DNA from: a virus
IMG/VR virus record: IMGVR_UViG_3300021446_000092
Coordinates: 1 to 51,500 of that record
Length of the DNA stretch: 51,500 nt
Direction: 5' to 3' (one strand)
In this document: piece by piece, positions 1 to 51,500 of the stretch
Layout of the letters: every line of letters starts with the position of its first letter
Position numbering within the stretch: the first letter of the stretch is position 1
Translations under genes and position numbers: made by a program
Notes under the pieces: generated by a model
The model's database searches: none
What the model saw: only the letters and a program-made list of their open reading frames with translations
Told to the model about the DNA's origin: nothing

Positions 1-72
1 CTCAAGTTCACCTTCTACACTCAACTCTTGCACCCGGTATGTAATAAAGGTTTGCTTCAAGCTAATTCTCCA
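1..72 (-). promoter_or_regulatory. Conserved promoter + 5' leader cassette, copy cut by window edge
   Basis: ctcaagttcaccttctacac...gtaataaaggtttgcttcaagctaatt matches copies at 3605, 4644, 31281 and inverted copies at 16662, 17148. nt 1-27 are identical to 51474-51500, so it probably drives CDS 51147..51473 across a circular junction. Confidence 0.7.
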
Positions 73-346: not shown

Positions 347-414
347 TCTCGGGAGTCTGTAAGCGGCGGCCGCCTATGAGTCCTCCGGCTCCCCGGAGTC
401 CTCCGCCGCCTTGA
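280..414 (+). CDS. Doubtful 44-aa Arg/Pro/Gly-rich ORF behind the orphan leader fragment
   Basis: The ATG at 280 directly follows GGTGAACTTGAG. Composition is basic and unlike the acidic proteome, and the ORF overlaps the 3' end of 374..952 in antisense. Confidence 0.15.
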   Translation: MNALRPGRPGGETGRPGERGVHLSGVCKRRPPMSPPAPRSPPPP

Positions 415-952
415 TAGCCGCCTCCAGTTCCGTGACCGTTATCTCCGGATCTATGTCCCGTACGCCAAGCGTCTCTAAGTCGAGTGTCTCAAAGTCGGGC
501 CGGCTCCCGCTCGCTGGTGTCACGTAACCGGATGAGGCGCTCTGCGGGATTATACTCTCGACGCTATCCGGGATTGCACTCCCGGGGCTGTCCAGTAGTG
601 ACGGCGGATCCGGCGGGGAAGACGCCCACTCTGTCTCCGGGTCCCCGGTGGCGGTCAAGTGAGTCTGTTCCGGTGCGTCGAAGTCCGGGAAGTTAACGTC
701 GGAGTCCGGGAGGTTATGCCGGGCCGCCACGGCGCGGGCGCAGTCCGGGCAGGTGTCCGGATCTTCGATGAAGTCAACCAGGGAGTCCCAGGAGTCCTCG
801 ACATGGGCAACGAAGCCGTCCCGCTCGTGGCCGCACGCCGCAGGGTTTTGGGAGCCGGTGGAGGCTCCACACGGCCATTCCTTTGTGGTCCCGGACCGCA
901 TCGAGTCCCAAACGTGGTACCGTTCGTCGCCAAAACAGGTGACGTAGTTCAT
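374..952 (-). CDS. Acidic hypothetical protein, member of a CPxC-motif paralogue family
   Basis: 192-aa ORF with halophile-type acidic composition. ATGA overlap with the upstream gene at 949-952. Motif SWDSLVDFIEDPDTCPDCARAVAARHNLP is shared with four other ORFs. Confidence 0.8.
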   Translation of the reverse strand: MNYVTCFGDERYHVWDSMRSGTTKEWPCGASTGSQNPAACGHERDGFVAHVEDSWDSLVDFIEDPDTCPDCARAVAARHNLPDSDVNFPDFDAPEQTHLTATGDPETEWASSPPDPPSLLDSPGSAIPDSVESIIPQSASSGYVTPASGSRPDFETLDLETLGVRDIDPEITVTELEAAIKAAEDSGEPEDS

Positions 953-1365
953 CCGAATAGCCCCCCAAACACGGCTTCTCCGTCTTCACTGTCCTCGCCG
1001 TCTCCGCCGTCCTCGCTGTCTTCGCTTTCCTCGACGTACTCAGCCGCCGGGGGCCACCTGTCAGCGAGGCCCATCTTACAGGAGGGACAGAGATCCGGGT
1101 CGTTCACAAGCTCCTGAAGGTCGGAGAATGCCGCCATCTCAGTGACGTGGAGTAGGTCCCTCGGAAAGTCCTTATGCCCTCCCCCTCCTTGCGAGTTTGC
1201 TTCCTGTACCGAGATCCCGCAGATAGCCGAGGGAGACGTTCTCGACCCGCTCACGGTATATGACGCGGTGTTCGGAAAATCGGGGTGCGACTCCACCAAG
1301 CCGGTGTTGAGCGGCTCGATGTAGATGTGGAACGGCTCGGTGTAGTGGTTGATGAACAGGGCCAT
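949..1365 (-). CDS. Acidic hypothetical protein, CPxC-motif paralogue
   Basis: 138-aa ORF coupled to its neighbours. Motif FSDLQELVNDPDLCPSCKMGLADRWPP. Confidence 0.75.
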   Translation of the reverse strand: MALFINHYTEPFHIYIEPLNTGLVESHPDFPNTASYTVSGSRTSPSAICGISVQEANSQGGGGHKDFPRDLLHVTEMAAFSDLQELVNDPDLCPSCKMGLADRWPPAAEYVEESEDSEDGGDGEDSEDGEAVFGGLFG

Positions 1366-1643
1366 CAGTCGCCACCTCCGGGGGCCGCGGCGCGGACACG
1401 CCTCCCCGCGTGCCGTTCCATCGCTTCTACTTCGGGGAAGCCGAAGTGGTCCGCCAGCCTTTCCTTACAGTCGCACGAAGTATGGATCCGCCCGTTGTGG
1501 ACGAGTTGCCAGATGGACGCCCCATACTCATCCGTCACTTCATACACAGCGTCGCGGTGCCCGCACAGGGTTTCTTCCCCTTCCTCCAGTCCAAGGCACA
1601 TGTCGGAGTGGTTCGCGTTCTGTACGTCGGTGTAGAACGCCAT
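1365..1643 (-). CDS. Hypothetical Cys-rich protein (92 aa), divergent CPxC-family member
   Basis: Internal ATG (MAFYTDVQN) of track ORF 1365..1787. TGATG overlap with the upstream stop at 1643. C-terminal TSCDCKERLADHFGFPE resembles the family motif. Confidence 0.7.
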   Translation of the reverse strand: MAFYTDVQNANHSDMCLGLEEGEETLCGHRDAVYEVTDEYGASIWQLVHNGRIHTSCDCKERLADHFGFPEVEAMERHAGRRVRAAAPGGGD

Positions 1644-1930
1644 CAGTCGTCCACCTCCAGCGCCTCTACGGTCCACTCCACCGCCGGTTCGCCGTACCGC
1701 TTGAGCCGGACGCGGTCGGGGCACAGATCCGGGTTCTGGGCGTCCTCGGGTGCCACGTCGAAGTCCGCGGGCGTGACCGTCGGCCATACGTTCCGTCCGG
1801 GGGAGGCGCTTGGAACGTCCAGGGTACTGGCGGGCGTCCGGATCACGAACCCGTCTCCGACGCCGGCAACGGAGTTGGGGAGGTGTAGCCCGCGCTCGGT
1901 GAGCGCGAGGGTCCCGCGCGGCTCCGTCAT
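1643..1930 (-). CDS. Hypothetical protein (95 aa), degenerate CPxC-family member
   Basis: Internal ATG (MTEPRGT) of track ORF 1643..2308. ATGA overlap at 1927-1930. Motif EDAQNPDLCPDRV. Confidence 0.65.
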   Translation of the reverse strand: MTEPRGTLALTERGLHLPNSVAGVGDGFVIRTPASTLDVPSASPGRNVWPTVTPADFDVAPEDAQNPDLCPDRVRLKRYGEPAVEWTVEALEVDD

Positions 1931-2214
1931 CTCTCCACCTCCGGAAGCTCGTGGAACCGCTCGCGGAGCGTCACGCTGTTCGTGTCGAACCGCTCCGCCA
2001 CCATCGACTGGGTGGGCCGGCCAGCGCCGGGCGCGGCGCGTGGGCGCGTCTCCAGATACGCGGCGTACACGGCCGCCGCGGCGACCCCCTTCGGGGCCTT
2101 TCCGTAGTGCCACGACTCGTCCGCCTCCGCGAGCGCGACAGCGCGCTCTACCACGTCGTCCGGGATCCCGTCCGCCTTGGCCTCGATGATACCGACGGGC
2201 GTCTCGGGGTACAT
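1927..2214 (-). CDS. Solo TFB/TFIIB-type cyclin-repeat protein (95 aa)
   Basis: GIPDDVVERAVALAE...GKAPKGVAAAAVYAAYL...PTQSMVAERFDTNSVTLRERFHEL aligns by eye with the second cyclin repeat of archaeal TFB (GKSPxGxxAAAxYxA ... TQxEVAxxxxVTEVTxRNRYKEL). No Zn-ribbon or B-reader/linker is present. Confidence 0.75.
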   Translation of the reverse strand: MYPETPVGIIEAKADGIPDDVVERAVALAEADESWHYGKAPKGVAAAAVYAAYLETRPRAAPGAGRPTQSMVAERFDTNSVTLRERFHELPEVER

Positions 2215-2351
2215 CAGCACGCACCCCCGGCGAGCTTGTACGCCGCGCCGAGCGCCTGCGCGTCCAGCAGGAACGCCCCAAAGTAGAGTAGCTCGGGCTG
2301 GAAGCCATCCGACCGCGCGGATAGGAGCGCGACCGTGAGCGTGAATATCAT
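2214..2351 (-). CDS. Small hydrophobic protein (45 aa)
   Basis: MIFTLTVALLSARSDGFQPELLYFGAFLLDAQALGAAYKLAGGAC. ATGA overlap with the vWA stop and TGATG overlap with the next start. Below the ORF-track size cutoff. Confidence 0.45.
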   Translation of the reverse strand: MIFTLTVALLSARSDGFQPELLYFGAFLLDAQALGAAYKLAGGAC

Positions 2352-3604
2352 CGGCCGCCCCCGCCGACGTTCATCTGGGCCTCGTAGATCTGGATGAGGC
2401 TCTGGGCGATGTCGTTCTCGTCGGTCATAACGTAGCCGCCCTCGCCGAACATCTTCCGCATCAGATCCTCGTCTGCGCCGGGCTGTATCCCCATCCCGAT
2501 GACGACGTAGCCGTCCTGGCGGTACTTCCGGACTTCCTCTTGCGCCTCGGTTGTCGCGCCGACCGCGTTGTAAGTCCCGTCAGCCATCATCTGCGGCTGT
2601 CCGTCCGTGATAACGACCATCAGGCGCTCGGAGGCGGAAACCTCGTCGCACAGGCCCTTCGCGTGCCGCATCCCAGGCGTGATGGGATCCTGGTAGTTCG
2701 GCCACACGGCGTCCAGATGCTCCCACTCAAAGTCCTCGTCCGGGAGCGTCACCGGGATGATGCGCTGGTTCTCCTTACCCTTCTTTTCCGTGCTGGTCCA
2801 GGCGTTGGCGGTGAAGTCGTCTCCGATTTCCCGGCACGCGATGGCAAGCGCGCCGAGGGCGCTCTTGGCTTCCTTCACGACGCCCTTCATGGAGCCGCTC
2901 ATGTCCATGCTGACGGTGACGGCGCGGTCGCCCGGCTCCGCCTTCTGCTTCCGCTCGTAGAGGCGGTCCTGAGCGGACGTGTCGCCGGCCACAAGGTCCA
3001 CCACAGCGTCCTCGTTGAGGCGCTCGCCGTCCTCGTCCGGGACCCAGCGGTCGTCCGTCTTGAAGCGGCTGAACGCCTCCACGACTTCCTCCGCTTGCCC
3101 CGTCTCGTTAAGGCGGTCGCGGACGGTCTGGTGGCCGACTTCCTCGTAGCCGTCGTCGTCCGGGTTGACGCGCCCGGAGTCGAGGCGCTTCTGCCGGGTG
3201 CGGCGGTCCTGCTCCAGGTCCGTGTCGGCCTGGTCCTTCTCCCGCTGGACCTGCTCGAACTGTTCCTCGAAGCCGTCAAGCTCCGTCACGTCCACTTCCT
3301 GGTCCTCATCCAGTTCGTACTCCAGCCCGGTCCGGCCGTAGTCCTCATCGGCCCGGTCGTAGTCGTCCGGGACGTGTTCGTCCTCACCGTGTTCGTCCAC
3401 CTTGGAAAGCTCCGGGACCGGATCCGCGTCATCGTCCTCCACGATGGCGTCCGGCGTCTCGTCGTCCGCGCCGGACCCGCGCCCGCCCTCGGGAGCCGAA
3501 TCGCGCTTCTCCACGTCCGCGCCGGCCGCGGTGAGCTTCTCGATTTCCGCGGAGGTCAGATCCTCCGCGACCACTTCGCCCGTCTCGGTGTCTATAGCTT
3601 TCAT
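2348..3604 (-). CDS. von Willebrand factor A (vWA) domain protein with acidic N-terminal region
   Basis: MIDAS motif DMSGSM, later ITDGQP. 418 aa. The ATG directly follows a promoter/leader cassette. Confidence 0.9.
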   Translation of the reverse strand: MKAIDTETGEVVAEDLTSAEIEKLTAAGADVEKRDSAPEGGRGSGADDETPDAIVEDDDADPVPELSKVDEHGEDEHVPDDYDRADEDYGRTGLEYELDEDQEVDVTELDGFEEQFEQVQREKDQADTDLEQDRRTRQKRLDSGRVNPDDDGYEEVGHQTVRDRLNETGQAEEVVEAFSRFKTDDRWVPDEDGERLNEDAVVDLVAGDTSAQDRLYERKQKAEPGDRAVTVSMDMSGSMKGVVKEAKSALGALAIACREIGDDFTANAWTSTEKKGKENQRIIPVTLPDEDFEWEHLDAVWPNYQDPITPGMRHAKGLCDEVSASERLMVVITDGQPQMMADGTYNAVGATTEAQEEVRKYRQDGYVVIGMGIQPGADEDLMRKMFGEGGYVMTDENDIAQSLIQIYEAQMNVGGGGR

Positions 3605-3675
3605 CTCAAGTTCACCTTCTACACTCTACACTTGCATACGGAGGGTAATAAAGGTTTGCTTGGGGCAAATTCTCC
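3605..3675 (-). promoter_or_regulatory. Promoter + leader cassette (drives vWA operon)
   Basis: In gene direction: GAATTTGCCCCAAGCAAACCTTTATTACCCTCCGTATGCAAGTGTAGAGTGTAGAAGGTGAACTTGAG-ATG. TATA-like TTTATTAC lies about 48 nt upstream of the ATG, SD-like GGTGA about 12 nt upstream. Confidence 0.75.
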
Positions 3676-3707: not shown

Positions 3708-4643
3708 CTACTCTACGATGCGGATTTCTGCGGCGTCCCGCTCCCCGAGTAGCTCGGCCACCATCCGGCTGTCCCGCGTCTCGCTCCCGCCGTCCTCGCC
3801 GTCCGCGCTGGAGCCGCCAGCCGCGGCGTCCGTGTCCTCGGCTTCCTCCGGGTCGAAGTCCGAATCGTCCGGGGCCTCGTCCGGGTCGAAGTGCCCGCGC
3901 TCCAGATCCTCCATAATCTCCTCGATGAGGTCACGGAGGAAGTCCGGCAGGTCCGGCGTCTCCGGGATGACCTCACGGAGACGGTCCACGACTTCGTGGG
4001 CCATCTCCTCGCGGCGGTCCGGGTCCTGGGTCTGCTTGACTTGCTCCGCCAGCGGGGCAATGTCCATCAGCGCCTCGCGGACTTCCGGGTCGGCGTCGTT
4101 GATGCCCTTGACTCTGCCCGCGAACGCGAGTTGAGTGAATCCCTCGACGGCCTGCTTCCGCGGCGGGATCTCACTCATCGGCGGGCGCATCTCATCGTCC
4201 TCCATGAGGCTCTGAATCGCCCAGTTGTGGACCTTCTTGAGTCCGCGGTACTTCCGGTGCCGGTTGTAGTCGATGTAGTTGTCCTCCAGAATGTTCATCG
4301 CCATTCCGGCGAGCTTCGCGTAGCCGTCGTCGTGTTGCTCCATGAACTCCCGCTTGCCCTCGATTTTGGAGTCGTTGTGGTGCTGAACCTCGTGGGAAAG
4401 CGTGTCCACGAGGAGCCGGAGCGCGTGCGCGCCGGTCGCGTCGTGGTACTTCCACGGCGCGTTCACGTCGAGGTAGACCGCGCGGGTCCCGTCCGGATCC
4501 GTATTGGCGTGGGCCGTCTCATCCGTCCAGCGGACTTCGATGGGGCCGTCGTCGCCGTCGTAGTAGTTCTGCGCGAGGTTCGTCAGGAGCCGCTTCAGGG
4601 CCTTGCTCTGTTCCAGCGCGTCGTCGGGTTTGGTATCGCTCAT
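3708..4643 (-). CDS. HExxH zinc metallopeptidase-like protein
   Basis: 311 aa with motif SHEVQHH and an acidic C-terminus. The ATG directly follows a cassette. Its neighbour is a vWA protein, resembling split DUF2201-type peptidase+vWA proteins. Confidence 0.85.
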   Translation of the reverse strand: MSDTKPDDALEQSKALKRLLTNLAQNYYDGDDGPIEVRWTDETAHANTDPDGTRAVYLDVNAPWKYHDATGAHALRLLVDTLSHEVQHHNDSKIEGKREFMEQHDDGYAKLAGMAMNILEDNYIDYNRHRKYRGLKKVHNWAIQSLMEDDEMRPPMSEIPPRKQAVEGFTQLAFAGRVKGINDADPEVREALMDIAPLAEQVKQTQDPDRREEMAHEVVDRLREVIPETPDLPDFLRDLIEEIMEDLERGHFDPDEAPDDSDFDPEEAEDTDAAAGGSSADGEDGGSETRDSRMVAELLGERDAAEIRIVE

Positions 4644-4715
4644 CTCAAGTTCACCTTCTACACTCTACACTTGCATACGGAGGGTAATAAAGATTTGTTT
4701 TGAGCAAATTAATCC
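4644..4715 (-). promoter_or_regulatory. Promoter + leader cassette (drives metallopeptidase gene)
   Basis: Near-identical to the 3605-3675 copy over about 55 nt. Confidence 0.75.
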
Positions 4716-4859: not shown

Positions 4860-5041
4860 GAGTGGCGTGAGCGGGGGTTTTCCCGGCGGTTCTTTCCGGC
4901 ACCGGAGCAGGTCCGCATCTCGACTGCCCGGCCGTGCAGGTCGGCTGAACCTTCTACTGACCAGAAACTTTAAGGCGGAAACGGGATTATGGCAAATTAC
5001 CGCCGCGGAGTGAACGACACCCACTCCCGGTGGGCCGAACC

Positions 5042-6199
5042 ATGACGACACCGTGGAAAGACATCCAGTTCGCTGGGGTAGGCGGAGCCTCCGGCGGAGT
5101 CGCGTTCAGCGACTACCTCCGGACGCTCTACGGCGTTGCTCCGGCGGACACGACGACGATGAAGGACGCCGTGAGCGTCCTTCAAGACGAGTATAGCATC
5201 GAGGCGCGAGAGGTGGCCTACGACGACCCGACCGCCGCAGAGGAATGGTCGGGGACGGGCCGCCACATCGCCCTCGTCAACCCCGCAACAGGCCGCTTGT
5301 GGCACATCCCGACCCGGGAGTACACGCCGGTCACTCCCGAGGAGAAGTACGGCCCGCTCCTCGCCCGGCTCCGTGCGCGGGACTTTCACGAGTCCGTGTC
5401 GGGTGAGATCCGCCTGTTCCGGGACGGCGGGGAAGTCCACGCGGACTTCCTTCTGGACGACCTTCGGACCGGCGCGGACGACGAGATAGTGATGGGCGTC
5501 CAAACCGGCCACAACTACTTCGGCGGGAAGGCGCTCTACGCCGGTATCATCGCCTACGACACGGCGAACAACCGGATGATGCGCGGCCTGTCGGAGAAGC
5601 GGACCCGCCGCCACACCGGATCTGCCGGGTCGGACGTGGCGGACTGGTGGGACCAGATACTCAACCAAGCCGAGGACGCCTGCGACACGCTCGCGTCGGT
5701 GATTCTGGACGCCCAGGACTACCGCGTGGGCTTCTCTGAAGTCCCGCTGTCGCCCGCGGAGTACCTCACCTACGCCTTCGACGGCACGGAGTACCTCGCG
5801 GAGAACAGCGGCGAAGGCGAGGGACAGACCGGCGGTGCGGTGGCGTACCTTCCGGACGTTCCGAACCCCACGTCCGCCACCTACTCCGGCTGGGAGCTGT
5901 ACGCCGCGATGGCGTCCGCGCTCACCCACGACTTCCACGGGAAGGACGACAGTACGGCCGTCAGGCGGTACGTCCGCCGGGCAAACCGGCAACTGTTCTC
6001 CCCGCCGCGGATGGAGGACGACGTGCTTTCCGACGCCGCGGAGGACCTGGAGGACCAGGAGGATCTCGAAGGCGAGTCCATTCTGGAGTCAATCCGGGAG
6101 CGGCAGGCGTCCATCGGGGTCGCCGTGAAGCGCGCGCGGTCTGACAAGGACCGGCTCCGGACGCTGGTGGATGAAGCGGAGTCCGCGGAGGCGGCATGA
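5042..6199 (+). CDS. Hypothetical protein (385 aa), possibly a DUF932-like phage/plasmid protein
   Basis: Long acidic ORF starting at ATG 5042 (MTTPWKD); a GTG at 5030 is also possible. The family assignment is only an impression. Confidence 0.85.
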   Translation: MTTPWKDIQFAGVGGASGGVAFSDYLRTLYGVAPADTTTMKDAVSVLQDEYSIEAREVAYDDPTAAEEWSGTGRHIALVNPATGRLWHIPTREYTPVTPEEKYGPLLARLRARDFHESVSGEIRLFRDGGEVHADFLLDDLRTGADDEIVMGVQTGHNYFGGKALYAGIIAYDTANNRMMRGLSEKRTRRHTGSAGSDVADWWDQILNQAEDACDTLASVILDAQDYRVGFSEVPLSPAEYLTYAFDGTEYLAENSGEGEGQTGGAVAYLPDVPNPTSATYSGWELYAAMASALTHDFHGKDDSTAVRRYVRRANRQLFSPPRMEDDVLSDAAEDLEDQEDLEGESILESIRERQASIGVAVKRARSDKDRLRTLVDEAESAEAA

Positions 6200-7520: not shown

Positions 7521-7896
7521 AACCCAACCGACGGCGGACGAACAGACCGACGACAACTTCACCCCCGGCGATTTCGCGGAGGACAGCGAGGAGTCCGGGA
7601 CGATGGTCGTGATAGCGGACGCGGGCCGGGAAGCGCAAGACCACCTCGTGGTCGCCGCGGATGAGACGGTGGCTGAACTGAACCCGGACTACCCGGCGGA
7701 CGACAACGTGCTGTTCTGCGCCTACCGGAACGCGCTGGACTCCACGTTCGGTGAGTCGTGGCGGGAGTGGACGGCCGCGTTCCTCGCGTTCCAAGTCGGA
7801 GACCAAGGCGTACCCGTGTACTCGTTCCCTGAGAGCCGGCTGGCGGCGAAGGCGGACGAGTACACCGCGGACGACGGAGGTGAGGGAGATGCGTGA
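7510..7896 (+). CDS. Acidic hypothetical protein (128 aa)
   Basis: Acidic ORF that overlaps its neighbours by a few nt. Confidence 0.75.
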   Translation: MTTETQPTADEQTDDNFTPGDFAEDSEESGTMVVIADAGREAQDHLVVAADETVAELNPDYPADDNVLFCAYRNALDSTFGESWREWTAAFLAFQVGDQGVPVYSFPESRLAAKADEYTADDGGEGDA

Positions 7897-8194
7897 ACAC
7901 GGCCTGAAAGACCTGACGGCGTTCCAGCGGGACGCCCTCGCTGTCGTGGCGAAGGGCGGCGGCCTGTACGGGCTGGCGGTCAAGGAGCGGCTCGGGGAGG
8001 CGCGCGGCGAGGCCATCAACCACGGCCGGCTCTACCCGAACCTCGACTCGCTGGTCCACATGGGGCTGGTGGAAAAGTCGGAGCGGAACGGCCGGACGAA
8101 CGAGTACGCCGTGACGCCAGCGGGCCGGGACGCGGTTTCGGACTACGCTGAGTGGGTAGCTGAGGCGGACCAGGGGGGTGAGGCGGATGAGTAA
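7889..8194 (+). CDS. PadR-family winged-helix transcriptional regulator
   Basis: Internal ATG (MREHGLKDL). LTAFQRDALAVV...GLAVKERL...INHGRLYPNLDSLVHMGLVEKSERNGRTNEYAVTPAG is a typical PadR pattern. Confidence 0.85.
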   Translation: MREHGLKDLTAFQRDALAVVAKGGGLYGLAVKERLGEARGEAINHGRLYPNLDSLVHMGLVEKSERNGRTNEYAVTPAGRDAVSDYAEWVAEADQGGEADE

Positions 8195-9695: not shown

Positions 9696-10070
9696 ATGAG
9701 TCACGACACCGAAGACGGAAACGCTGGACGGAGCGATGAACCGAAGCCGGTCCTGTGGGTGAGTCTCACGTCGGCGGGACGGGCGGAGACGACCGCCGCG
9801 GACCTAACGGAAGCTGGCGACCGCGTGAAGGAAGCGGTCGGGGACGACTACGAGGTAATCGTGGCGGACGACCGTGTCCGCCTCGCCACGGTTGAGGACC
9901 TGCAAGACCTACGCGACTCCATCGACGCCCTGCTCCCGTCGGATCTGGAGACGGAGGCGGAGCGGCAGGAACGCCAGCGGGAGGAAATGGGTCTGTCCGC
10001 GGGCGACGTTATGGGCGGGAACACCGACGCGCCGGGCGTGCAGGAGCCGGAGGGCGAGGATGAAGCGTGA
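9696..10070 (+). CDS. Acidic hypothetical protein (124 aa)
   Basis: Acidic ORF, the first gene after the ribozyme-like spacer. Confidence 0.8.
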   Translation: MSHDTEDGNAGRSDEPKPVLWVSLTSAGRAETTAADLTEAGDRVKEAVGDDYEVIVADDRVRLATVEDLQDLRDSIDALLPSDLETEAERQERQREEMGLSAGDVMGGNTDAPGVQEPEGEDEA

Positions 10071-10399
10071 AGCACTACGACGACTACCGCTCGCTTGCGA
10101 TGGTCGTTGGCGCGCTCCAGAGCGGGGGGTTCGTCCGGACGGACGTGAAGCCCGACGACGACGGCCCGCCGTGGATGGGGCGGCCGCTATTCCTCCACGG
10201 CGGGGACGTATGGTGCGACGAGTGCCGGGAGCTAATCGACCCCGACGACTGGTACGGGGAGGCGTGGCCGAACGTCCTCGCGCGGCAAAAGCTCAAGTAC
10301 AGCGGGACGTGGTGCGGCGACTGCTTCGCGGAGGTAGACCCGGGCCGGTCCGCGGAGGGGACCGATGAGCCGGAGCGACCCGGACGGACCTTCGACTGA
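10067..10399 (+). CDS. Cys-rich hypothetical protein (110 aa)
   Basis: ATGA-coupled. WCDECRE...WCGDCF suggests zinc binding. Confidence 0.75.
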   Translation: MKHYDDYRSLAMVVGALQSGGFVRTDVKPDDDGPPWMGRPLFLHGGDVWCDECRELIDPDDWYGEAWPNVLARQKLKYSGTWCGDCFAEVDPGRSAEGTDEPERPGRTFD

Positions 10400-16661: not shown

Positions 16662-16732
16662 GTAGAATTAGCTTCAAGCAAACTCTTATTACCCTCCGGG
16701 TGAAAGTATAGGGTGTAGAAGGTGAACTTGAG
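16662..16732 (+). promoter_or_regulatory. Promoter + leader cassette (plus-strand orientation)
   Basis: gtagaattagcttcaagcaaactcttattaccc...gtgtagaaggtgaacttgag followed by ATG 16733. Confidence 0.75.
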
Positions 16733-16861
16733 ATGAGCAAATGCGAAGCAACGGTCAGATGTACGGACTGCGGGAAATTCCACCACGGCCAACCGGACGA
16801 CGCTCCGCTGTTTGGGTGCCCGGACGGGGAACTTGACGCGCACGAGTGGGAGGCGTTCTGA
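16733..16861 (+). CDS. Zinc-ribbon-like protein (42 aa)
   Basis: MSKCEATVRCTDCGKFHHGQ...FGCPDGELDAHEWEAF. The ATG sits at the canonical cassette position, with an ATGA overlap to the next gene. Confidence 0.6.
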   Translation: MSKCEATVRCTDCGKFHHGQPDDAPLFGCPDGELDAHEWEAF

Positions 16862-17147: not shown

Positions 17148-17217
17148 TATTTGCTTGAAGCAAACTTTTATTACCCTATACCTGCAAGTATAGAGTGTAA
17201 TGGAGGTGAAAAACAGT
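17148..17217 (+). promoter_or_regulatory. Divergent copy of the promoter + leader cassette
   Basis: tatttgcttgaagcaaacttttattaccctatacctgcaagtatagagtgtaatggaggtgaaaaacagt-ATG. The TATA/BRE-like part is conserved and the leader 3' part diverges (GGAGGTGA). Confidence 0.7.
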
Positions 17218-17508
17218 ATGGAACACAAAGTCCACCGCGACGTGTCGGACGAGGAAAAGCGTCTCTGGTCGGAGTTTCAGGACGCGCTCGAAGCCTCAGA
17301 CTTCGAGAAGGTTTCCGTGACCGAGGTCGCCGTCCAGCGGGTCGGGATCCACGAGACGCGGTCGCGGCAAATCGTCTCCACGTGGGAGAACGAGGGGCTG
17401 GTCATTTCCGGAGGGGCCGGGTCGTATGACCACGCCGCGCTAACCGAGTACGGCCGGCAGGTGGACAGCATCGTTTCGACCAACACGGGCGGCGAGTCCT
17501 GGCGTTAG
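17218..17508 (+). CDS. Winged-helix-like DNA-binding protein (96 aa)
   Basis: MEHKVHRD...VSVTEVAVQRVGIHETRSRQIVSTWENEGLVIS resembles an HTH/wHTH regulator. Confidence 0.8.
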   Translation: MEHKVHRDVSDEEKRLWSEFQDALEASDFEKVSVTEVAVQRVGIHETRSRQIVSTWENEGLVISGGAGSYDHAALTEYGRQVDSIVSTNTGGESWR

Positions 17509-30620: not shown

Positions 30621-31280
30621 CTACCGCTCCAGTTCAACTTCGACCAGTTCTCCCATGAACGGGTAGTAGCCGCTGGAGAACAGCGCGGGCGTCCCGTTAT
30701 CGTCCGCCTTGACGCGCTTCGTCTTGCCGTCGCTGTCCCAGAACACGATGCCGGTGGTCTGCGCGCGGACGCCGCGGCCCGTCCGCTCCCCGGCCACCTG
30801 CGCGCTCTCAACCTCGCCCTCGTACGTGTTCAGCCCGTTCCCGTTCTTCTTTTCGTACTGGACCCGGACGGTGTCGCCCTCCGACGCCGCGCCGCACAGC
30901 GCCTCCAGTTCGTCGTCGCCCTCATCCCCCTCATCGCCGCCGTTCTCCAGCCGGTGGCGGCGGTCCGCGACTCCCTTCCACTCGTAGCCCGCATCCTCCG
31001 CCTTCTCCGCGAGCGGCTTCAGGCCGGAGATGTCCAGCGTCCACGCCCTGCGGTCCTTATCGAACGTGTAGTGGTGGTCGACCCACTCCAGCGACTTCAC
31101 CAGGTCGTTCGGCGGCGTCGCGCCGTCCGGAACGTCCCACGGCGCGGGCGTTTCCACGGCCGCCTTCTTGTCGTCGTAGTCGTTCTCGTAGGAGTCCACG
31201 ACGCGGAACACCAGTTCGGTCTCGTCTTCGTCCTCGCTGTCCTCCGCCTCAAACTCGTACCGCCGGATGCTTGCACTCAT
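30621..31280 (-). CDS. Acidic hypothetical protein (219 aa) with its own promoter cassette
   Basis: The ATG directly follows the cassette at 31281. Inserted between the portal-side genes and the protease. Confidence 0.85.
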   Translation of the reverse strand: MSASIRRYEFEAEDSEDEDETELVFRVVDSYENDYDDKKAAVETPAPWDVPDGATPPNDLVKSLEWVDHHYTFDKDRRAWTLDISGLKPLAEKAEDAGYEWKGVADRRHRLENGGDEGDEGDDELEALCGAASEGDTVRVQYEKKNGNGLNTYEGEVESAQVAGERTGRGVRAQTTGIVFWDSDGKTKRVKADDNGTPALFSSGYYPFMGELVEVELER

Positions 31281-31350
31281 CTCAAGTTCACCTTCTACAC
31301 TTACAGCTTGCAGGGGATGGGTAATAAACGTTTGCTTGAAGCTAATTCGG
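31281..31350 (-). promoter_or_regulatory. Promoter + leader cassette
   Basis: ctcaagttcaccttctacacttacagcttgcaggggatgggtaataaacgtttgcttgaagctaattcgg. Confidence 0.75.
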
Positions 31351-34190: not shown

Positions 34191-34544
34191 TTACGGCTCT
34201 TGGACCGGAAACTCCCCAGACCAGATCTGCTTTTCATCACTCCCGTCGTCGTCGACGACCAGCCGTTGCCACAGCGTCTCCCCGCCGAGGTCCGAGGTAA
34301 CGTCCTGAGCGATATGAACGTTGACGCGGCCCGCCGCCGCGTCTACGACCGTCACATCTACCCCCGTGGAACTGTCCGAAAGCGTCGCCCGGCTCCCGTC
34401 CGCGCCGCGGCGCGGGAGCAGGTACCACTCCACCGTCGAGTTGTCAAGCGGCTTCGCCGTCCCGTCCGCCTGCTCGATGGTAAACTCCCACGTTACGTTC
34501 TCCCCAGCGACGTAATCACGGAACGGCTCAATGGAGTGCGTCAC
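34191..34544 (-). CDS. Hypothetical beta-rich protein (117 aa)
   Basis: ATGA-coupled to the upstream repeat protein. Confidence 0.75.
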   Translation of the reverse strand: MTHSIEPFRDYVAGENVTWEFTIEQADGTAKPLDNSTVEWYLLPRRGADGSRATLSDSSTGVDVTVVDAAAGRVNVHIAQDVTSDLGGETLWQRLVVDDDGSDEKQIWSGEFPVQEP

Positions 34545-36379
34545 GCCGAATCCTCCTCGTTCATGGTCCGCTCAACGGAGCCGTCCCACGTAAGCGTTCG
34601 TACGGTGAACGGGGCAGAGACGAGCGCCCGGGGGAGGTTCGACCGCGCTACCGCCAGCGTCCGGGCCGGCGTTGCCGCCGCCGAGACGCCGCGGCTGACC
34701 GCCGGGTCGGCCACGAGGACTCGGGCGATGCTGTAGGCGAGCGGCGCGGACCCGCTCCCCTCCCCAACGCCAGCCGCGTTCAAGCCGGCAGTCCGGGATA
34801 CCCTGGCCGCGCCGGATCCGGTAGCCGTCCCGGTGGCGTCGAAGGGGCGCGAACGGACGGGCGTCGCCGTCCCGACCGCCGCGCCGCTCCCCGTAGCGGT
34901 CAGCGGGCGATAGCGGTCCAGCGCCGCCGCCCCGGCCGCGGCCGAGATCCCCGCGCCCAAGAGCGTCCGACTGCGGAATAGCCCCGCCGCGCCGTCACCC
35001 GCCGCAACGCCGCCGCCGGACAAGGCGCGCTCCCGGCGGGGTTGAGCCGCCCCGCTCCCGACGCCGCTCCCCGCGGCGCTCAGGCCGCGGGTGAACAGTA
35101 TGACAGCGTCGCCAGTCGCCGTCCCGGCCCCGGCCGCCGTAAGGGGGCGGGCAACTACGACGGCCGCGGAGCCGACGCCTGTGCCGGCCCCACTCCCGGC
35201 GAGCGGGCGGACTCTGGTCACGTCCGCCGCGCCAGTTCCTATCCCGTCACCCCCCGCGTCGAGTGCCCGCGGCCGGAGTAGCGCCGCCGTCCCACTTCCC
35301 GCGCCGGAGCCAGCGGCGGTGACAAAGCGTGGGCGGGTCACGACGGCCGTCCCGTCGCCGGCCGCCGTGCCGCTCCCGGCGAGGAGGCGGGCCAGCGTTA
35401 CGAGCGCCGTTCCCGACCCGGAGCCAGCGCCGGCCGCTGTGAGGGTGCGAACTGCGGAGGCAGTTGCCGCCCCCGCGCCCGTCCCGACTCCGCTCGCGCT
35501 CGTGAAGCGCGGACGGAGGATAGCCGCCGCTCCAGCGCCCGCGCCGCTCCCGGACCCGGCCAGCCCGCGCGTGAGGGTGGCCTGCGCGCCACCTGCGCCG
35601 TTCCCCGCGCCGCTCCCCGTGACGGACCGCTGGCGGAGCGCATCCGCTGTCCCATCCGCTCTCCCGCTCCCCGCGGCCGTCAGCAGGCTGGCGCGTGTGA
35701 GAGCGGCGGACCCGCTCCCGACGCCGCTCCCCGTAGCGGTGAGGGAGACGGCGGCCGACCCGAGGAAGTCGCCGCCGAGCGCATCCCAGTAGCCTACATC
35801 GCCGACAGATCCCGAATAGAGGCCAATACCGCTCCCGGTCCACGGTGTATCCGAGTCGCTGGCGCTGAGAGTCCCAATCTGGTCGCCGGTATCGTGGTCG
35901 TAAACCGTCGCGTCGATGTTCCCGGACGAGTCCCACGTCACGGAGATCCGGGCCGGGTTTCCGCGGATGTCCGCCGAGAGGGTGACGCTGTCTAGGAGCG
36001 TCCGAGAGCCGGCGTCATGGCGGTATATGCGGGCCTCGTTGATCTTGTTCGAGCCGTCGTGGGGATGAACCGTGACGGAGTAGCCGTCGTCTGGGTTCCC
36101 CTCGCCGCCGAAAATAACGCCCGGCGAGCTAAACGTCACGACGAAGCTATTATCGTCGTACTGAGCAGTAGCGACTATCTTGATGGTGTCGCCCGGCGAC
36201 GGGTAGGCGTCCAGACCGGAGTACGACTGGTGATAGTTCGACTCGGCAGTGGAGGCAATCTTCGCCGCGTAGCTCCCATCAACGTTGTGAACCGTCGCGC
36301 GCTCCAGATCACTCGGTGTTGAATACTCGGAAAAGTCAGAGTCCTCGTACGAGTCCAGAACGTCGTAAGAGACGGGCAT
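34541..36379 (-). CDS. Lectin-like N-terminal domain + about 17 tandem 20-aa Gly/Ala repeats (612 aa)
   Basis: The N-terminus is paralogous to 13781..14554. The repeat consensus is roughly L-x-A-A-G-S-G-x-G-x-G-x-A-x-x-x-R-x-R-x. Confidence 0.85.
   Translation of the reverse strand: MPVSYDVLDSYEDSDFSEYSTPSDLERATVHNVDGSYAAKIASTAESNYHQSYSGLDAYPSPGDTIKIVATAQYDDNSFVVTFSSPGVIFGGEGNPDDGYSVTVHPHDGSNKINEARIYRHDAGSRTLLDSVTLSADIRGNPARISVTWDSSGNIDATVYDHDTGDQIGTLSASDSDTPWTGSGIGLYSGSVGDVGYWDALGGDFLGSAAVSLTATGSGVGSGSAALTRASLLTAAGSGRADGTADALRQRSVTGSGAGNGAGGAQATLTRGLAGSGSGAGAGAAAILRPRFTSASGVGTGAGAATASAVRTLTAAGAGSGSGTALVTLARLLAGSGTAAGDGTAVVTRPRFVTAAGSGAGSGTAALLRPRALDAGGDGIGTGAADVTRVRPLAGSGAGTGVGSAAVVVARPLTAAGAGTATGDAVILFTRGLSAAGSGVGSGAAQPRRERALSGGGVAAGDGAAGLFRSRTLLGAGISAAAGAAALDRYRPLTATGSGAAVGTATPVRSRPFDATGTATGSGAARVSRTAGLNAAGVGEGSGSAPLAYSIARVLVADPAVSRGVSAAATPARTLAVARSNLPRALVSAPFTVRTLTWDGSVERTMNEEDSA
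34718..35749 (-). repeat. In-frame tandem repeat region (period about 57-60 nt) inside CDS 34541..36379
   Basis: Protein residues about 211-554 parse into about 17 units such as LTAAGSGAGSGTAALLRPRA and LAGSGAGTGVGSAAVVVARP. Confidence 0.8.
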
Positions 36380-44841: not shown

Positions 44842-45831
44842 TCAGTCCCCGCCCGCGGAGTAGTCCCGCTGGCTTGGCTGTTCTTCCGCCGCGCCCAGTT
44901 CGTCCGGGTCGTCCGCGTAGTCGCGGATCTCCTTGGCGCGCTTCAGTTCTTCTTCGGGCGTCCCGCACTCGGCCATCTCCTCGCGGTAGTACAGGACGAC
45001 GCTCAGGCGCTCGTAATAGCCGTCGCTGGAGTGGAACGGGCCGTTGCCGTGCCACTCGTGTACGTCGTTCAGGAGAACGTCGCCGGCCCGGGCGTCGTAC
45101 GCCATCCCGAACTTCGGCTCGATGAAGTACGCCCCCTCGTAGTCGCCTGCGTCGATGACCGGCATGACGCCGAAGCCTTCCTCGTAGTCGCCGGAGTCGG
45201 TGTGAAGCGCGGTCTGCCAGTTCAGGTTGACGGTGACGGTGGTGAAGGGCGTCCCGGAGATAACCCAGTCGTCCACCGTCTCCTTGGCGACGGCGTTCTG
45301 TCGCTCGTACCGCTCCGGGACGTACTCCGCGAAGGCGTCCCCGGCCCGCTGGAAGAACGGGATTGCGCGGGCGAATTTCTTCGGGTTGTTCACGTTGTAG
45401 GCGGTCTGTCGGCAGTACGGGATCCGCGGGTAGCGGTCGTAGTAGCCGGCGATGCCGGTGTTCGGTTCCATCTCCGGCTTCACCTGCGTCGTCTTACTGA
45501 CCGACCCATCCTCCTTGACCCGCTTCTCGCGGCTCCCCTTCCCGGTCGCCATGCCGCGGTTGACGGAGCCGGTGAACGCCGCGGGGCGGAGCGCCTTGTA
45601 CGCCTCGATACACTTCTCCTGTTCGATGTAGTCGTGGAGGTAGACCGCCAGTATGTCGCCGTTCGGCTTGTACACGATGGCGGAGCCGGTCGTCTCTCCG
45701 GAGATGAGCGTGTCCCAGTCGTCGTCCGTCAGTTTCTCCCCGGCCATCGCCTCCACGTCCTCGTCGGCCATGCAGTCCGATTCCTCCAGCCGGATCTCAG
45801 TCAGTCCGTCGTCGCGTTCAGCCCGCTCCAT
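44842..45831 (-). CDS. 2OG-Fe(II) dioxygenase, probably TET/JBP family
   Basis: Facial triad candidates ALHTDSGD (HxD) and VHEWHGNG (distal His), then RLSVVLYYR (RxS 2OG-binding pattern), with spacing typical of the double-stranded beta-helix. Confidence 0.85.
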   Translation of the reverse strand: MERAERDDGLTEIRLEESDCMADEDVEAMAGEKLTDDDWDTLISGETTGSAIVYKPNGDILAVYLHDYIEQEKCIEAYKALRPAAFTGSVNRGMATGKGSREKRVKEDGSVSKTTQVKPEMEPNTGIAGYYDRYPRIPYCRQTAYNVNNPKKFARAIPFFQRAGDAFAEYVPERYERQNAVAKETVDDWVISGTPFTTVTVNLNWQTALHTDSGDYEEGFGVMPVIDAGDYEGAYFIEPKFGMAYDARAGDVLLNDVHEWHGNGPFHSSDGYYERLSVVLYYREEMAECGTPEEELKRAKEIRDYADDPDELGAAEEQPSQRDYSAGGD

Positions 45832-46595
45832 TAGTCGCCAGCCTCCAGCAGTTCCGCCTCGCCCTCGTCCATCTCTGCGCGCTCCGACTCCCGGCGGACC
45901 GCTTCCTCCACGGCGTCGCTCGTGGTGTCCAGGTCGTACTCCCGCTTGAGGGTCGTGACGCGCTCTTGGAACGTTTGCTTGGCGTCCTCGGTCATGAACA
46001 GTTGGACCATCGCGGTGGCGGTCGTCTCCCCGAGGTGTTCCATCGACCGCGGTGTGGTGTCGTCCTCGCTGTCGGCGGCGTCCGCGGATCCGCTGTCGGC
46101 GTCCGCGTCGGTGTCCTCCGCGTCGGCGTCCGCGTTCTCGCTGTCGGCGTCGCCGCCGGACTCCAGCAGTTCCTCCGGGTCCATCTTCGTTGCGAGGTTC
46201 TGGGCGAGGTCCTGGGGCGCGTAGAAGTCCACCTTGAACCGGGACACGTCGATGTCGTACTTGTCCATCAGTTCCGCCACGCGCTCCTCGTCGTAGGACC
46301 CGGCGCGGTCGTTGTCCGCCATCGCTATCTCCATCATCTCGTCCTCGTCCTCCGGGTCCACGACAGACACGTAGGCTTCCTCCCGGCCCATCTCACGCAT
46401 CGTCTTGAGGCGCTGGTTGCCGCCGATGACGGTCCCGTCGCCGGTGACGATGAGCGGCTTGAACTGACCGTGCGCCTCCAGATGCTTCCGGAGCCGCTCC
46501 AGGTCAGCGTCGTTGACTTCCCGCGGGTTGTCGTCCCACAGTTCGAGGTCGGCCACGTCCGCGTAGGTCTTGCCGCCTTCTTGTCGCGTCTCCAT
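45831..46595 (-). CDS. ParB-like nuclease/N-terminal domain protein with poly-acidic linker
   Basis: ATG 46595 (METRQEGG). LELWDDNPREVNDADLERLRKHLEAHGQFKPLIVTGDGTVIGGNQRL matches the ParB/Srx fold signature. Confidence 0.85.
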   Translation of the reverse strand: METRQEGGKTYADVADLELWDDNPREVNDADLERLRKHLEAHGQFKPLIVTGDGTVIGGNQRLKTMREMGREEAYVSVVDPEDEDEMMEIAMADNDRAGSYDEERVAELMDKYDIDVSRFKVDFYAPQDLAQNLATKMDPEELLESGGDADSENADADAEDTDADADSGSADAADSEDDTTPRSMEHLGETTATAMVQLFMTEDAKQTFQERVTTLKREYDLDTTSDAVEEAVRRESERAEMDEGEAELLEAGD

Positions 46596-46807
46596 AGTCG
46601 GCTGAATGACCGCTGGACGCTTAGAATTTCGGGTTGCGCGGGTCTGTGTGGTTTGCGGCGGTTCTAAACTATCTGCGTTGGTCTGCACGGCTGAGTCCTG
46701 AACAGCTAATAAGTGAAAGAACAAATTGAAACAAATTAGTGGGTATATACTAAGGTAGGATACCCTGCAAGGTATAATTGCCTCCAGGGGTGGAGGCGTG
46801 AATCGCT
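46596..46807. promoter_or_regulatory. AT-rich divergent intergenic control region
   Basis: Separates the minus operon (46595 leftwards) from the plus gene at 46808. Contains aataagtgaaagaacaaattgaaacaaattagtgggtatatactaagg...ggtataattg and the hairpin CCTCCA-gggg-TGGAGG next to the ATG. Confidence 0.5.
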
Positions 46808-51473: not shown

Positions 51474-51500
51474 CTCAAGTTCACCTTCTACACTCAACTC
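51474..51500 (-). promoter_or_regulatory. Leader part of the promoter cassette, cut by the window end
   Basis: Identical to nt 1-27. Confidence 0.7.

Follow-up and report, generated by a model that had tools for sequence, protein, structure and literature searches.

The window analysed here is the whole 51,500-nucleotide stretch of DNA from the IMG/VR virus record IMGVR_UViG_3300021446_000092 (positions 1 to 51,500; G+C 64-68%). Close to its left end, on the minus strand, lies a gene for a 95-amino-acid (aa) protein that is one complete C-terminal cyclin repeat (CLR2/HTH2) of the archaeal transcription factor TFB and nothing else. At the DNA level, relatives of the window are limited to two haloarchaeal siphoviruses of the family Saparoviridae, HHTV-2 (Haloarcula hispanica tailed virus 2, genus Halohivirus) and, with a weaker match, HCTV-2; within the first 8 kb, part of the sequence is approximately 72% identical. 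The TFB-repeat gene is part of an operon that comprises the following open reading frames (ORFs):

2348..3604, minus strand: vWA-domain CobT-like protein, 418 aa, first gene of the operon (Pfam VWA, PHROG CobT, synteny)
2214..2351, minus strand: hydrophobic ORF of 45 aa between the vWA and TFB-repeat genes, found only in this virus
1927..2214 (including the stop codon), minus strand: TFB-repeat gene, 95 aa, solo CLR2/HTH2 (ORF, homology, fold)
1643..1930, minus strand: downstream 95-aa gene, orthologue of HHTV-2 gp5, with an ATGA overlap with the TFB-repeat gene
374..1643, minus strand: three further small genes, 92, 138 and 192 aa, two of them with DPD(L/T)CPxC motifs

The TFB-repeat ORF runs on the minus strand from an ATG at 2214-2212 to a TGA at 1929-1927; it overlaps its neighbours at both ends, with the stop codon of the 45-aa ORF at its start (TGATG) and with the next start codon at its stop (ATGA). 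Translation from an in-frame GTG (2220) would add two residues, but the ATG is favoured because the homologues begin with MNY(S/D)TP. The 95-aa product is identical in independent gene calls on two public assemblies, namely the European Nucleotide Archive (ENA) metagenome contig ERZ27300283 k141_27952 (52,983 nt) and a Logan contig (3.6 kb).

A solitary second cyclin repeat of TFB

In TFB and TFIIB, the C-terminal repeat sets a helix-turn-helix (HTH) into the major groove of the TFB-recognition element (BRE), just upstream of the TATA box. The first-pass annotation of the window had aligned the 95-aa product by eye with this second repeat, an assignment that is now confirmed by Pfam, by sequence matches to PDB entries, by a family profile and by the fold. 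For the single sequence the match to the TFIIB repeat (PF00382) is marginal (24.1 bits against a gathering cut-off of 23.6, E 3.8e-5); the same model is matched by 14 of the 19 members of the solo family, with a best E-value of 4.6e-10. The NCBIfam TFB model gives 25.9 bits against a cut-off of 384, and only positions 234-304 of its 312 are covered. The best PDB sequence matches are to Pyrococcus woesei TFBc (1ais_B and 1d3u_B), at residues 120-192, which is the second repeat, and the two motifs singled out earlier recur in this alignment (GKAPKGVAAAAVYAAY versus GKSPAGLVAAALYIAS, and PTQSMVAERFDTNSVTLRERFHELPE versus RTQREVAEVARVTEVTVRNRYKELVE). The profile of the 19 small homologues matches 1ais_B over residues 107-192, the whole second repeat including its first helix (E 3.8e-21), and scores 60 bits on repeat 2 versus only 16 bits on repeat 1. 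The hidden Markov model (HMM) search against TFIIB/TFB profiles that had been suggested as a check thus yielded a significant TFIIB-family match, both with PF00382 and with the family profile against TFBc.

The AlphaFold2 model is a five-helix bundle with a mean predicted local distance difference test score (pLDDT) of 93.4 and helices at residues 6-12, 19-31, 41-56, 69-75 and 80-89, the last of which is the predicted recognition helix (SVTLRERFHE). In a Foldseek comparison with the PDB, each of the top 27 matches is a chain of TFB, TFIIB or Brf1, with 1ais_B in first place (template modelling (TM) score 0.70, root-mean-square deviation 2.2 Å); Orc6 is found among the distant matches. In a library of viral structures the best match is gp4 of HHTV-2, followed by giant-virus TFIIBs and the TFB of rudivirus SSRV1.

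The remaining parts of TFB, namely the Zn-ribbon, the B-reader/linker and the first repeat, had been described as absent, and indeed none of them is detectable anywhere in the window by a six-frame ORF search. When four TFBs containing both cyclin repeats (three full-length proteins with the Zn-ribbon and one N-terminally truncated protein) were compared with all six-frame ORFs of the window using phmmer, only the TFB-repeat ORF was matched, and only via repeat 2. A split TFB encoded by neighbouring genes is accordingly ruled out, as no Zn-ribbon or first repeat is found in any frame. Among the seven other genes of the cassette region that were compared with Pfam, PHROGs and PDB sequences, only vWA/CobT was matched. 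The ORF opens at the first helix of the repeat, approximately 134 nt away from the upstream vWA gene, so that the protein has no Zn-ribbon of the kind found in a functional TFB; a B-reader, a B-linker and a tandem of cyclin repeats are likewise missing, as the protein consists of just one repeat. Lacking all the parts that recruit polymerase, the solo repeat cannot act as an initiation factor.

The orthologue in HHTV-2, gp4 (YP_008060313; UniProt R4TG19), shares 56.5% identity with the 95-aa protein over 92 aa, has a very similar predicted fold (TM score 0.90) and is encoded at the identical position, immediately behind the vWA/CobT-like gene and followed by the gp5-like gene. The same order of vWA, TFB-repeat and gp5-like genes is found in four metagenomic contigs (L005, L006, L007 and L010), and in Saparoviridae-like contigs the TFB-repeat gene is always immediately preceded by the vWA/CobT-like gene. 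Between the window and HHTV-2 the TFB repeat has diverged to 56% identity, compared with 81% for the neighbouring vWA protein. Solo repeats are also encoded in contigs of other kinds:

L009 (Logan SRR23092357_15278), 10001-10321: 113-kb contig with ribonucleotide reductase, ERCC4 nuclease, MazG and Rad3-like helicase
L012 (ENA KOPF15-1 scaffold_3358), 2186-2494: 14-kb contig with His1-type capsid genes
L013 (Ga0207714_1000172), approximately 4972-5237: 43-kb contig in which the gene comes after a Zn-finger gene

Given these contig types, among which L012 looks like a spindle-shaped virus, the domain appears to have spread over unrelated halovirus groups. The nearest cellular sequences are the second repeats of haloarchaeal TFBs (40-51% identity), which suggests that the viral domain was probably captured from a host tfb gene. 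No member of the solo family was found in HCTV-2, which represents another genus of Saparoviridae, and no homologue in the plasmid collection; the IMG/VR scan recovered only HHTV-2, and the metagenome scan one further locus. Pattern scans of 185,579 representative genomes, which are of limited sensitivity, detected no relative, and tblastn searches of the phage collection with three other family members and a canonical repeat 2 returned either nothing or only Sulfolobales virus YNP1.

A HMMER search of 1.84 billion representative sequences identified 23 relatives, mostly small acidic proteins (85-121 aa) alongside a few TFBs that contain at least two cyclin repeats; altogether, the small solo repeats form approximately 20 sequence clusters and occur in several virus types. 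We aligned 21 solo proteins and 77 repeat-2 segments of haloarchaeal TFBs to a single HMM. The two sets share the fold core (P6, A25, G38, P41, A45-47, Y50 and A52) and the HTH residues T68, Q69, V81, T82, R84 and R86, so that the signature T-Q...V-T-x-R-x-R is present in both; V81 and R84 align with V283 and R286 of human TFIIB, which we take to be BRE contacts. Residue 85, the Asn of the RNRY motif, is Asn in 99% of the canonical repeats but K, E, Q, D, N or S in the solo family, and N85, Y87, K39/S40, E80 and the first-helix residues Y9/V10/F12 are all conserved in the canonical set (at least approximately 80%) and variable in the solo set. Conversely, W35, F76 and V21 are conserved in the solo family only, and the members of the Saparoviridae type carry an insertion of 7-8 residues between helices 3 and 4. 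Some members score weakly on models of sigma-70 region 4, GntR and other HTH domains. The picture suggested by this comparison is that of a domain that keeps the DNA-reading residues, appears to have been freed from TFB-internal constraints and varies at a presumably DNA-facing position of the recognition helix. One metagenomic protein of 269 aa (P0014) contains two full solo-type repeats in tandem, at residues 31-121 and 161-250, without a Zn-ribbon.

Promoter cassettes and the palindrome at the BRE position

The operon was described in the first-pass annotation as driven by a promoter cassette, and this holds: the cassette at 3602..3669 drives the operon that contains the TFB-repeat gene. 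Early expression of the operon, which had been presumed as well, is a guess. Six copies of the cassette are present in the window, each with a TATA-like TTTATTA followed by approximately 20 nt of variable sequence and by a near-invariant leader, GAGTGTAGAAGGTGAACTTGAG, up to the ATG:

3602..3669, minus strand: cassette of the TFB-repeat operon; palindrome TTTGCCCCAAGCAAA at 3669-3655, CC, TTTATTA at 3652-3646, the leader, ATG at 3604-3602
1..65, minus strand: copy with the leader cut by the window start, palindrome at 51-65; in the public contig it drives a CobS-like AAA+ gene
4641..4708, minus strand: copy driving the 311-aa gene 4643..3708; the proximal half-site is ACAAA
31278..31345, minus strand: copy driving the 219-aa gene 31280..30621; palindrome at 31331-31345
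16668..16735, plus strand: copy with the palindrome at 16668-16682
17150..17217, plus strand: copy with a variant leader, palindrome at 17150-17164, driving the 102-aa ORF 17200-17508

The conserved AAGCAAAC that had been noticed just upstream of the TATA-like box occurs eight times in the window versus 0.4 expected, and five of these occurrences immediately precede a cassette's TATA-like box. The motif forms the half nearest the TATA box of a palindromic element, TT(T/A)GC-N5-GCAAA, which was counted seven times versus 0.03 expected, always within cassettes; these counts correspond to five distinct sites, of which two are read on both strands. With two bases separating it from the downstream TATA box, the palindrome occupies the BRE position, and the centres of its half-sites are 10 bp apart. 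HHTV-2 has three such cassettes, before gp2, gp3 (vWA) and gp10 (AAA+), with palindromes at approximately 350-365, 1662-1676 and 5917-5931 of that genome (L014). In all three, GGAAA replaces GCAAA, and in two of the three the distal half is altered to match (TTTCC or TTGCC). As the transcript is expected to start downstream of the element, the concerted alteration of its two arms points to a protein reading two inverted half-sites, and the palindrome looks like an operator for a binder with two-fold symmetry. In HCTV-2, from which the TFB-repeat gene is absent as well, no such cassettes were found.

The proximal half-site and residue 85 of the solo repeat compare as follows:

Window: GCAAA, residue 85 is E
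L010: GCAAA, residue 85 is E
L006: GCAAA, residue 85 is D
HHTV-2: GGAAA, residue 85 is Q

It is suggestive that residue 85 appears to follow the half-site across these four viruses.

Two other putative DNA-binding proteins were noticed in the window. One, encoded at 7889-8194 on the plus strand, is a PadR-family winged-HTH protein (Pfam E 6e-13) whose gene adjoins a Band_7/SPFH gene on its downstream side; the corresponding genes in HHTV-2 are gp82/gp81, and the gene is absent from HCTV-2. The other is the product of the 102-aa ORF at 17200-17508 (plus strand), which is rich in helices and resembles winged-helix regulators, with no Pfam match and no homologue in HHTV-2 or HCTV-2.

The cassettes also bear on the ends of the window. 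Its 25-nt terminal direct repeat (1-25 and 51476-51500) is part of the cassette leader, and the 52,983-nt ENA contig contains approximately 1.48 kb of additional sequence (locus L002, 9487-11073), with a 473-aa AAA_5 (CobS-like) gene between near-identical cassettes. The window appears to have lost this segment of approximately 1.48 kb at a repeat. The terminal repeat provides no evidence of a closed circle.

Possible roles of the solo repeat

To our knowledge, archaeal viruses do not encode a polymerase of their own, and we know of only a few archaeal viral transcription regulators whose mechanism is established, such as ORF145/RIP and SvtR. The solo repeat, judged from its sequence and that of the cassettes, would bind BRE-like DNA as a promoter-specific regulator and not as an initiation factor, its most likely targets being the virus's own cassette promoters, with their palindrome at the BRE position. 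We put forward this role, that of a BRE-site binder that would regulate the cassette promoters without recruiting polymerase, as the most likely, if tentative, interpretation. Two copies of the protein might bind, one per half-site, or a single copy might occupy the distal half-site beside a host TFB on the proximal one. As the protein accumulates, it would compete with host TFB for the BRE and turn the cassette operons off, although activation by stabilising TFB would fit the data equally. Given that the TFB-repeat gene is itself transcribed from such a cassette, feedback control would be the simplest logic; and because haloarchaea carry many TFB paralogues, competition at the level of the BRE is a plausible control point.

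The link of the solo repeat to the cassettes is strengthened, circumstantially, by three features: AAGCAAAC is one half of the palindrome, the two arms have co-changed in HHTV-2, and HCTV-2 is without both the gene and the cassettes. A unit of two repeats is plausible because P0014 is a tandem of two solo-type repeats, and may be a covalent version of a dimer. A more elaborate possibility is that two solo repeats form a pseudo-TFB core that would read the palindrome as a 'double BRE' and thereby define a virus-specific class of promoters, excluding or appropriating host TFB; this we regard as doubtful.

Several points weigh against a role of the solo repeat at the cassettes. The comparison of half-sites with residue 85 covers four viruses and two states and is confounded by relatedness. 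For the solo repeats of L009, L012 and L013, no BRE palindrome was evident in the few pieces of upstream sequence viewed, and binding of two copies presumes a dimerisation that is itself conjectural. The PadR-family protein, a dimeric winged-HTH protein, shows the same presence and absence as the cassettes (present in the window and HHTV-2, absent from HCTV-2) and, as a conventional binder of palindromes, would be an equally ordinary candidate for reading this one; the product of the cassette-driven 102-aa ORF would be a further candidate. The recognition helix of PadR is nearly unchanged between the window and HHTV-2 (one conservative I/V change), which speaks weakly against PadR.

Global shut-off of the host, which the first-pass annotation had considered alongside a retargeting of initiation to the cassette promoters, would have the solo repeat act as a dominant-negative fragment that takes BRE/TBP-DNA complexes from host TFBs and blocks polymerase recruitment genome-wide. 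The protein is indeed a BRE-reading repeat with its HTH contact residues kept and the polymerase-recruiting parts absent, and its closest relatives are TFBs of the host type. Nevertheless, N85, Y87, K39/S40, E80 and Y9/V10/F12, near-invariant in canonical repeats, are not conserved in the viral family, which argues against a simple dominant-negative copy of a host factor. In the established structures it is chiefly through its first repeat that TFB touches the TBP stirrup; with this repeat absent, the affinity for TBP-DNA is expected to be low and a stable TBP-DNA complex with the fragment alone is doubtful. Furthermore, the virus's own promoters have an ordinary BRE and TATA box and would be blocked too, and the variation of the specificity position between viruses suggests virus-specific targets. 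Occupation of TBP/BRE complexes is therefore less likely than a role at virus-specific operators, and host shut-off seems to us an improbable main function.

A second alternative is that the protein is a generic HTH regulator of TFB descent, or a binder of a replication or packaging site, and that the palindrome is read by another protein, such as the PadR-like one. The weak scores of some family members on sigma-70 region 4, GntR and other HTH models, the co-occurrence of PadR with the cassettes and the use of TFIIB-like folds outside transcription (Orc6 being among the distant fold matches) are all compatible with this alternative. The residues conserved in the family are, on the other hand, exactly those of the TFB HTH, and the gene is located inside a cassette operon, with half-sites that are BRE-like in both sequence and position, so that we consider a generic role unlikely. 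If the cassettes are not bound, the protein is an ordinary HTH gene product.

Less probable still is a protein decoy, in which the isolated repeat 2 would sequester a partner from the host, be it the N-terminal region of TFB, an activator or repressor, or a defence sensor. Such a role would account for the surface residues W35, F76 and V21, conserved in the solo family and absent from canonical repeats, as well as for the fast evolution of the protein relative to its vWA neighbour (56% versus 81% identity to HHTV-2), and modelling predicts a contact of the TFIIB Zn-ribbon with repeat 2 (PMC4581349). A pure decoy, however, would not need conserved R84, Q69, T82 and R86; no partner was identified, and the model of the translationally coupled neighbour is uninformative. 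Finally, it is very improbable that the gene is a non-functional remnant of a captured host tfb gene: the ORF is short and at the Pfam threshold, and pairwise dN/dS is high (0.4-0.8) at a near-saturated dS that makes the values uninformative, but position and length are conserved across divergent viruses, the five-helix fold is complete (pLDDT 93), the start is coupled to the upstream stop and the stop to the downstream start, and the family, with its approximately 20 clusters across several virus types, occurs in at least three kinds of halovirus-like contigs, which argues against a remnant.

If regulation of the cassette promoters by the solo repeat is borne out, a free-standing BRE-reading domain would be a direct handle on how haloviruses redirect the TBP/TFB/RNA polymerase machinery; a pseudo-TFB core would be an archaeal counterpart of sigma appropriation by phages and, among factors encoded by viruses, the first with a demonstrated action through the BRE. 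The present analysis supplies a candidate 15-bp operator at the BRE position together with a natural swap (GCAAA with E85 versus GGAAA with Q85), and HHTV-2 on Haloarcula hispanica is a cultivable model.

Genomic surroundings and comparison with known systems

The 45-aa ORF of the operon is absent from HHTV-2 and from L010, where the vWA and TFB-repeat genes abut. For the downstream 95-aa gene, neither a family nor a fold match was found, and there is just one cluster of homologues; its AlphaFold2 model is poor (pLDDT 67.6, beta-rich), and Foldseek returned only noise. Liu et al. (2021; PMC8651126) place HHTV-2 gp5 in arCOG06449 ('zinc finger protein'). The motif (N/D)PD(L/T)CP(D/S)(R/C) is common to the small downstream genes at 1643-1930, 949-1365 and 374-952 (minus strand), and there is a weak alignment between the 138-aa and the 192-aa product; these small genes look like a paralogous family.

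Farther away, the window contains a ParB_N-like gene followed by a gene of the Tet_JBP dioxygenase family (44842-46724, minus strand; 15856-17617 in L002), and at the same place in HHTV-2 a ParB-like gene lies beside a 'beta-glucosyl-HMC-alpha-glucosyltransferase'. The ParB_N-like/Tet_JBP pair, together with the glucosyltransferase neighbour in HHTV-2, suggests that the viral DNA may be hypermodified. Diverged direct repeats of approximately 38 nt are found at 34866-35749, with spacings of 54-66, 180 and 480 nt, within a 612-aa ORF (34541..36379, minus strand; G+C 0.72) that probably encodes a repetitive, Gly/Ala-rich structural (fibre-like) protein.

The first-pass annotation treated the TFB-repeat protein as new, which does not hold: the HHTV-2 orthologue, labelled 'hypothetical protein' in GenBank, is listed as "TFIIB, cyclin-like domain" in supplementary file 6 of Liu et al. 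(2021; PMC8651126). Supplementary files 5 and 6 of that study also list a 'TFIIB cyclin-like domain' for PC_00762 (F1), PC_18656 (F3 and F4) and psiM2 gp6, and 'Zn finger, TFIIB type' genes have entries of their own in these tables, as do viral TBPs. The TFIIB cyclin-like genes are not taken up in the main text (PMC8651126). From the gene content we read the family code F1 as Hafunaviridae, and the F1 'TFIIB cyclin-like' cluster was not detected by the solo-family HMM in the first 50 kb of HF2. Our literature search found no functional study of any viral TFIIB-cyclin-like or TFB-repeat gene, HHTV-2 gp4 included. The viral TFB repeat is thus of a kind already annotated, to which the window adds another member; what is new is the comparison of the family and the palindrome at the BRE position.

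TFB homologues have been reported in rudiviruses (SSRV1, MRV1 and ARV3) and in Asgard wyrdviruses. These, together with Sulfolobales virus YNP1, PC_00762, PC_18656 and psiM2 gp6, are likewise virus-borne derivatives of TFB, and the SSRV1 homologue, the rudivirus protein whose length was compared, is with 270 aa far longer than the 95-aa protein. The promoter-bearing intergenic repeats of HF2 contain a BRE, a TATA box and a conserved transcript start region, with the TATA box from -26 and the BRE at -33 to -37 (PMC8707807); the cassettes of the window resemble these repeats but differ from them in sequence, and for HF2 no palindrome has been reported and no regulator linked to the repeats. Among cellular proteins, the truncated TFB paralogue TFB3 of Sulfolobus acts as an activator in trans beside full-length TFB and TBP at promoters (PMC6101594). 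It corresponds to the opposite half of TFB, with a Zn-ribbon and a coiled coil and without the HTH domain, so that the viral protein is not of the TFB3 type. With the C-terminal repeat of TFB and TFIIB (P. woesei TFBc, 1AIS and 1D3U) the viral protein shares the five-helix fold and the HTH signature, whereas the Zn-ribbon, B-reader, B-linker, first repeat and the Asn of RNRY are found in TFB/TFIIB alone and the insertion of 7-8 residues in the viral protein alone. The closest counterpart, HHTV-2 gp4, differs in having Q85 in place of E85 in the recognition helix, and its virus has GGAAA in the cassettes where the window has GCAAA.

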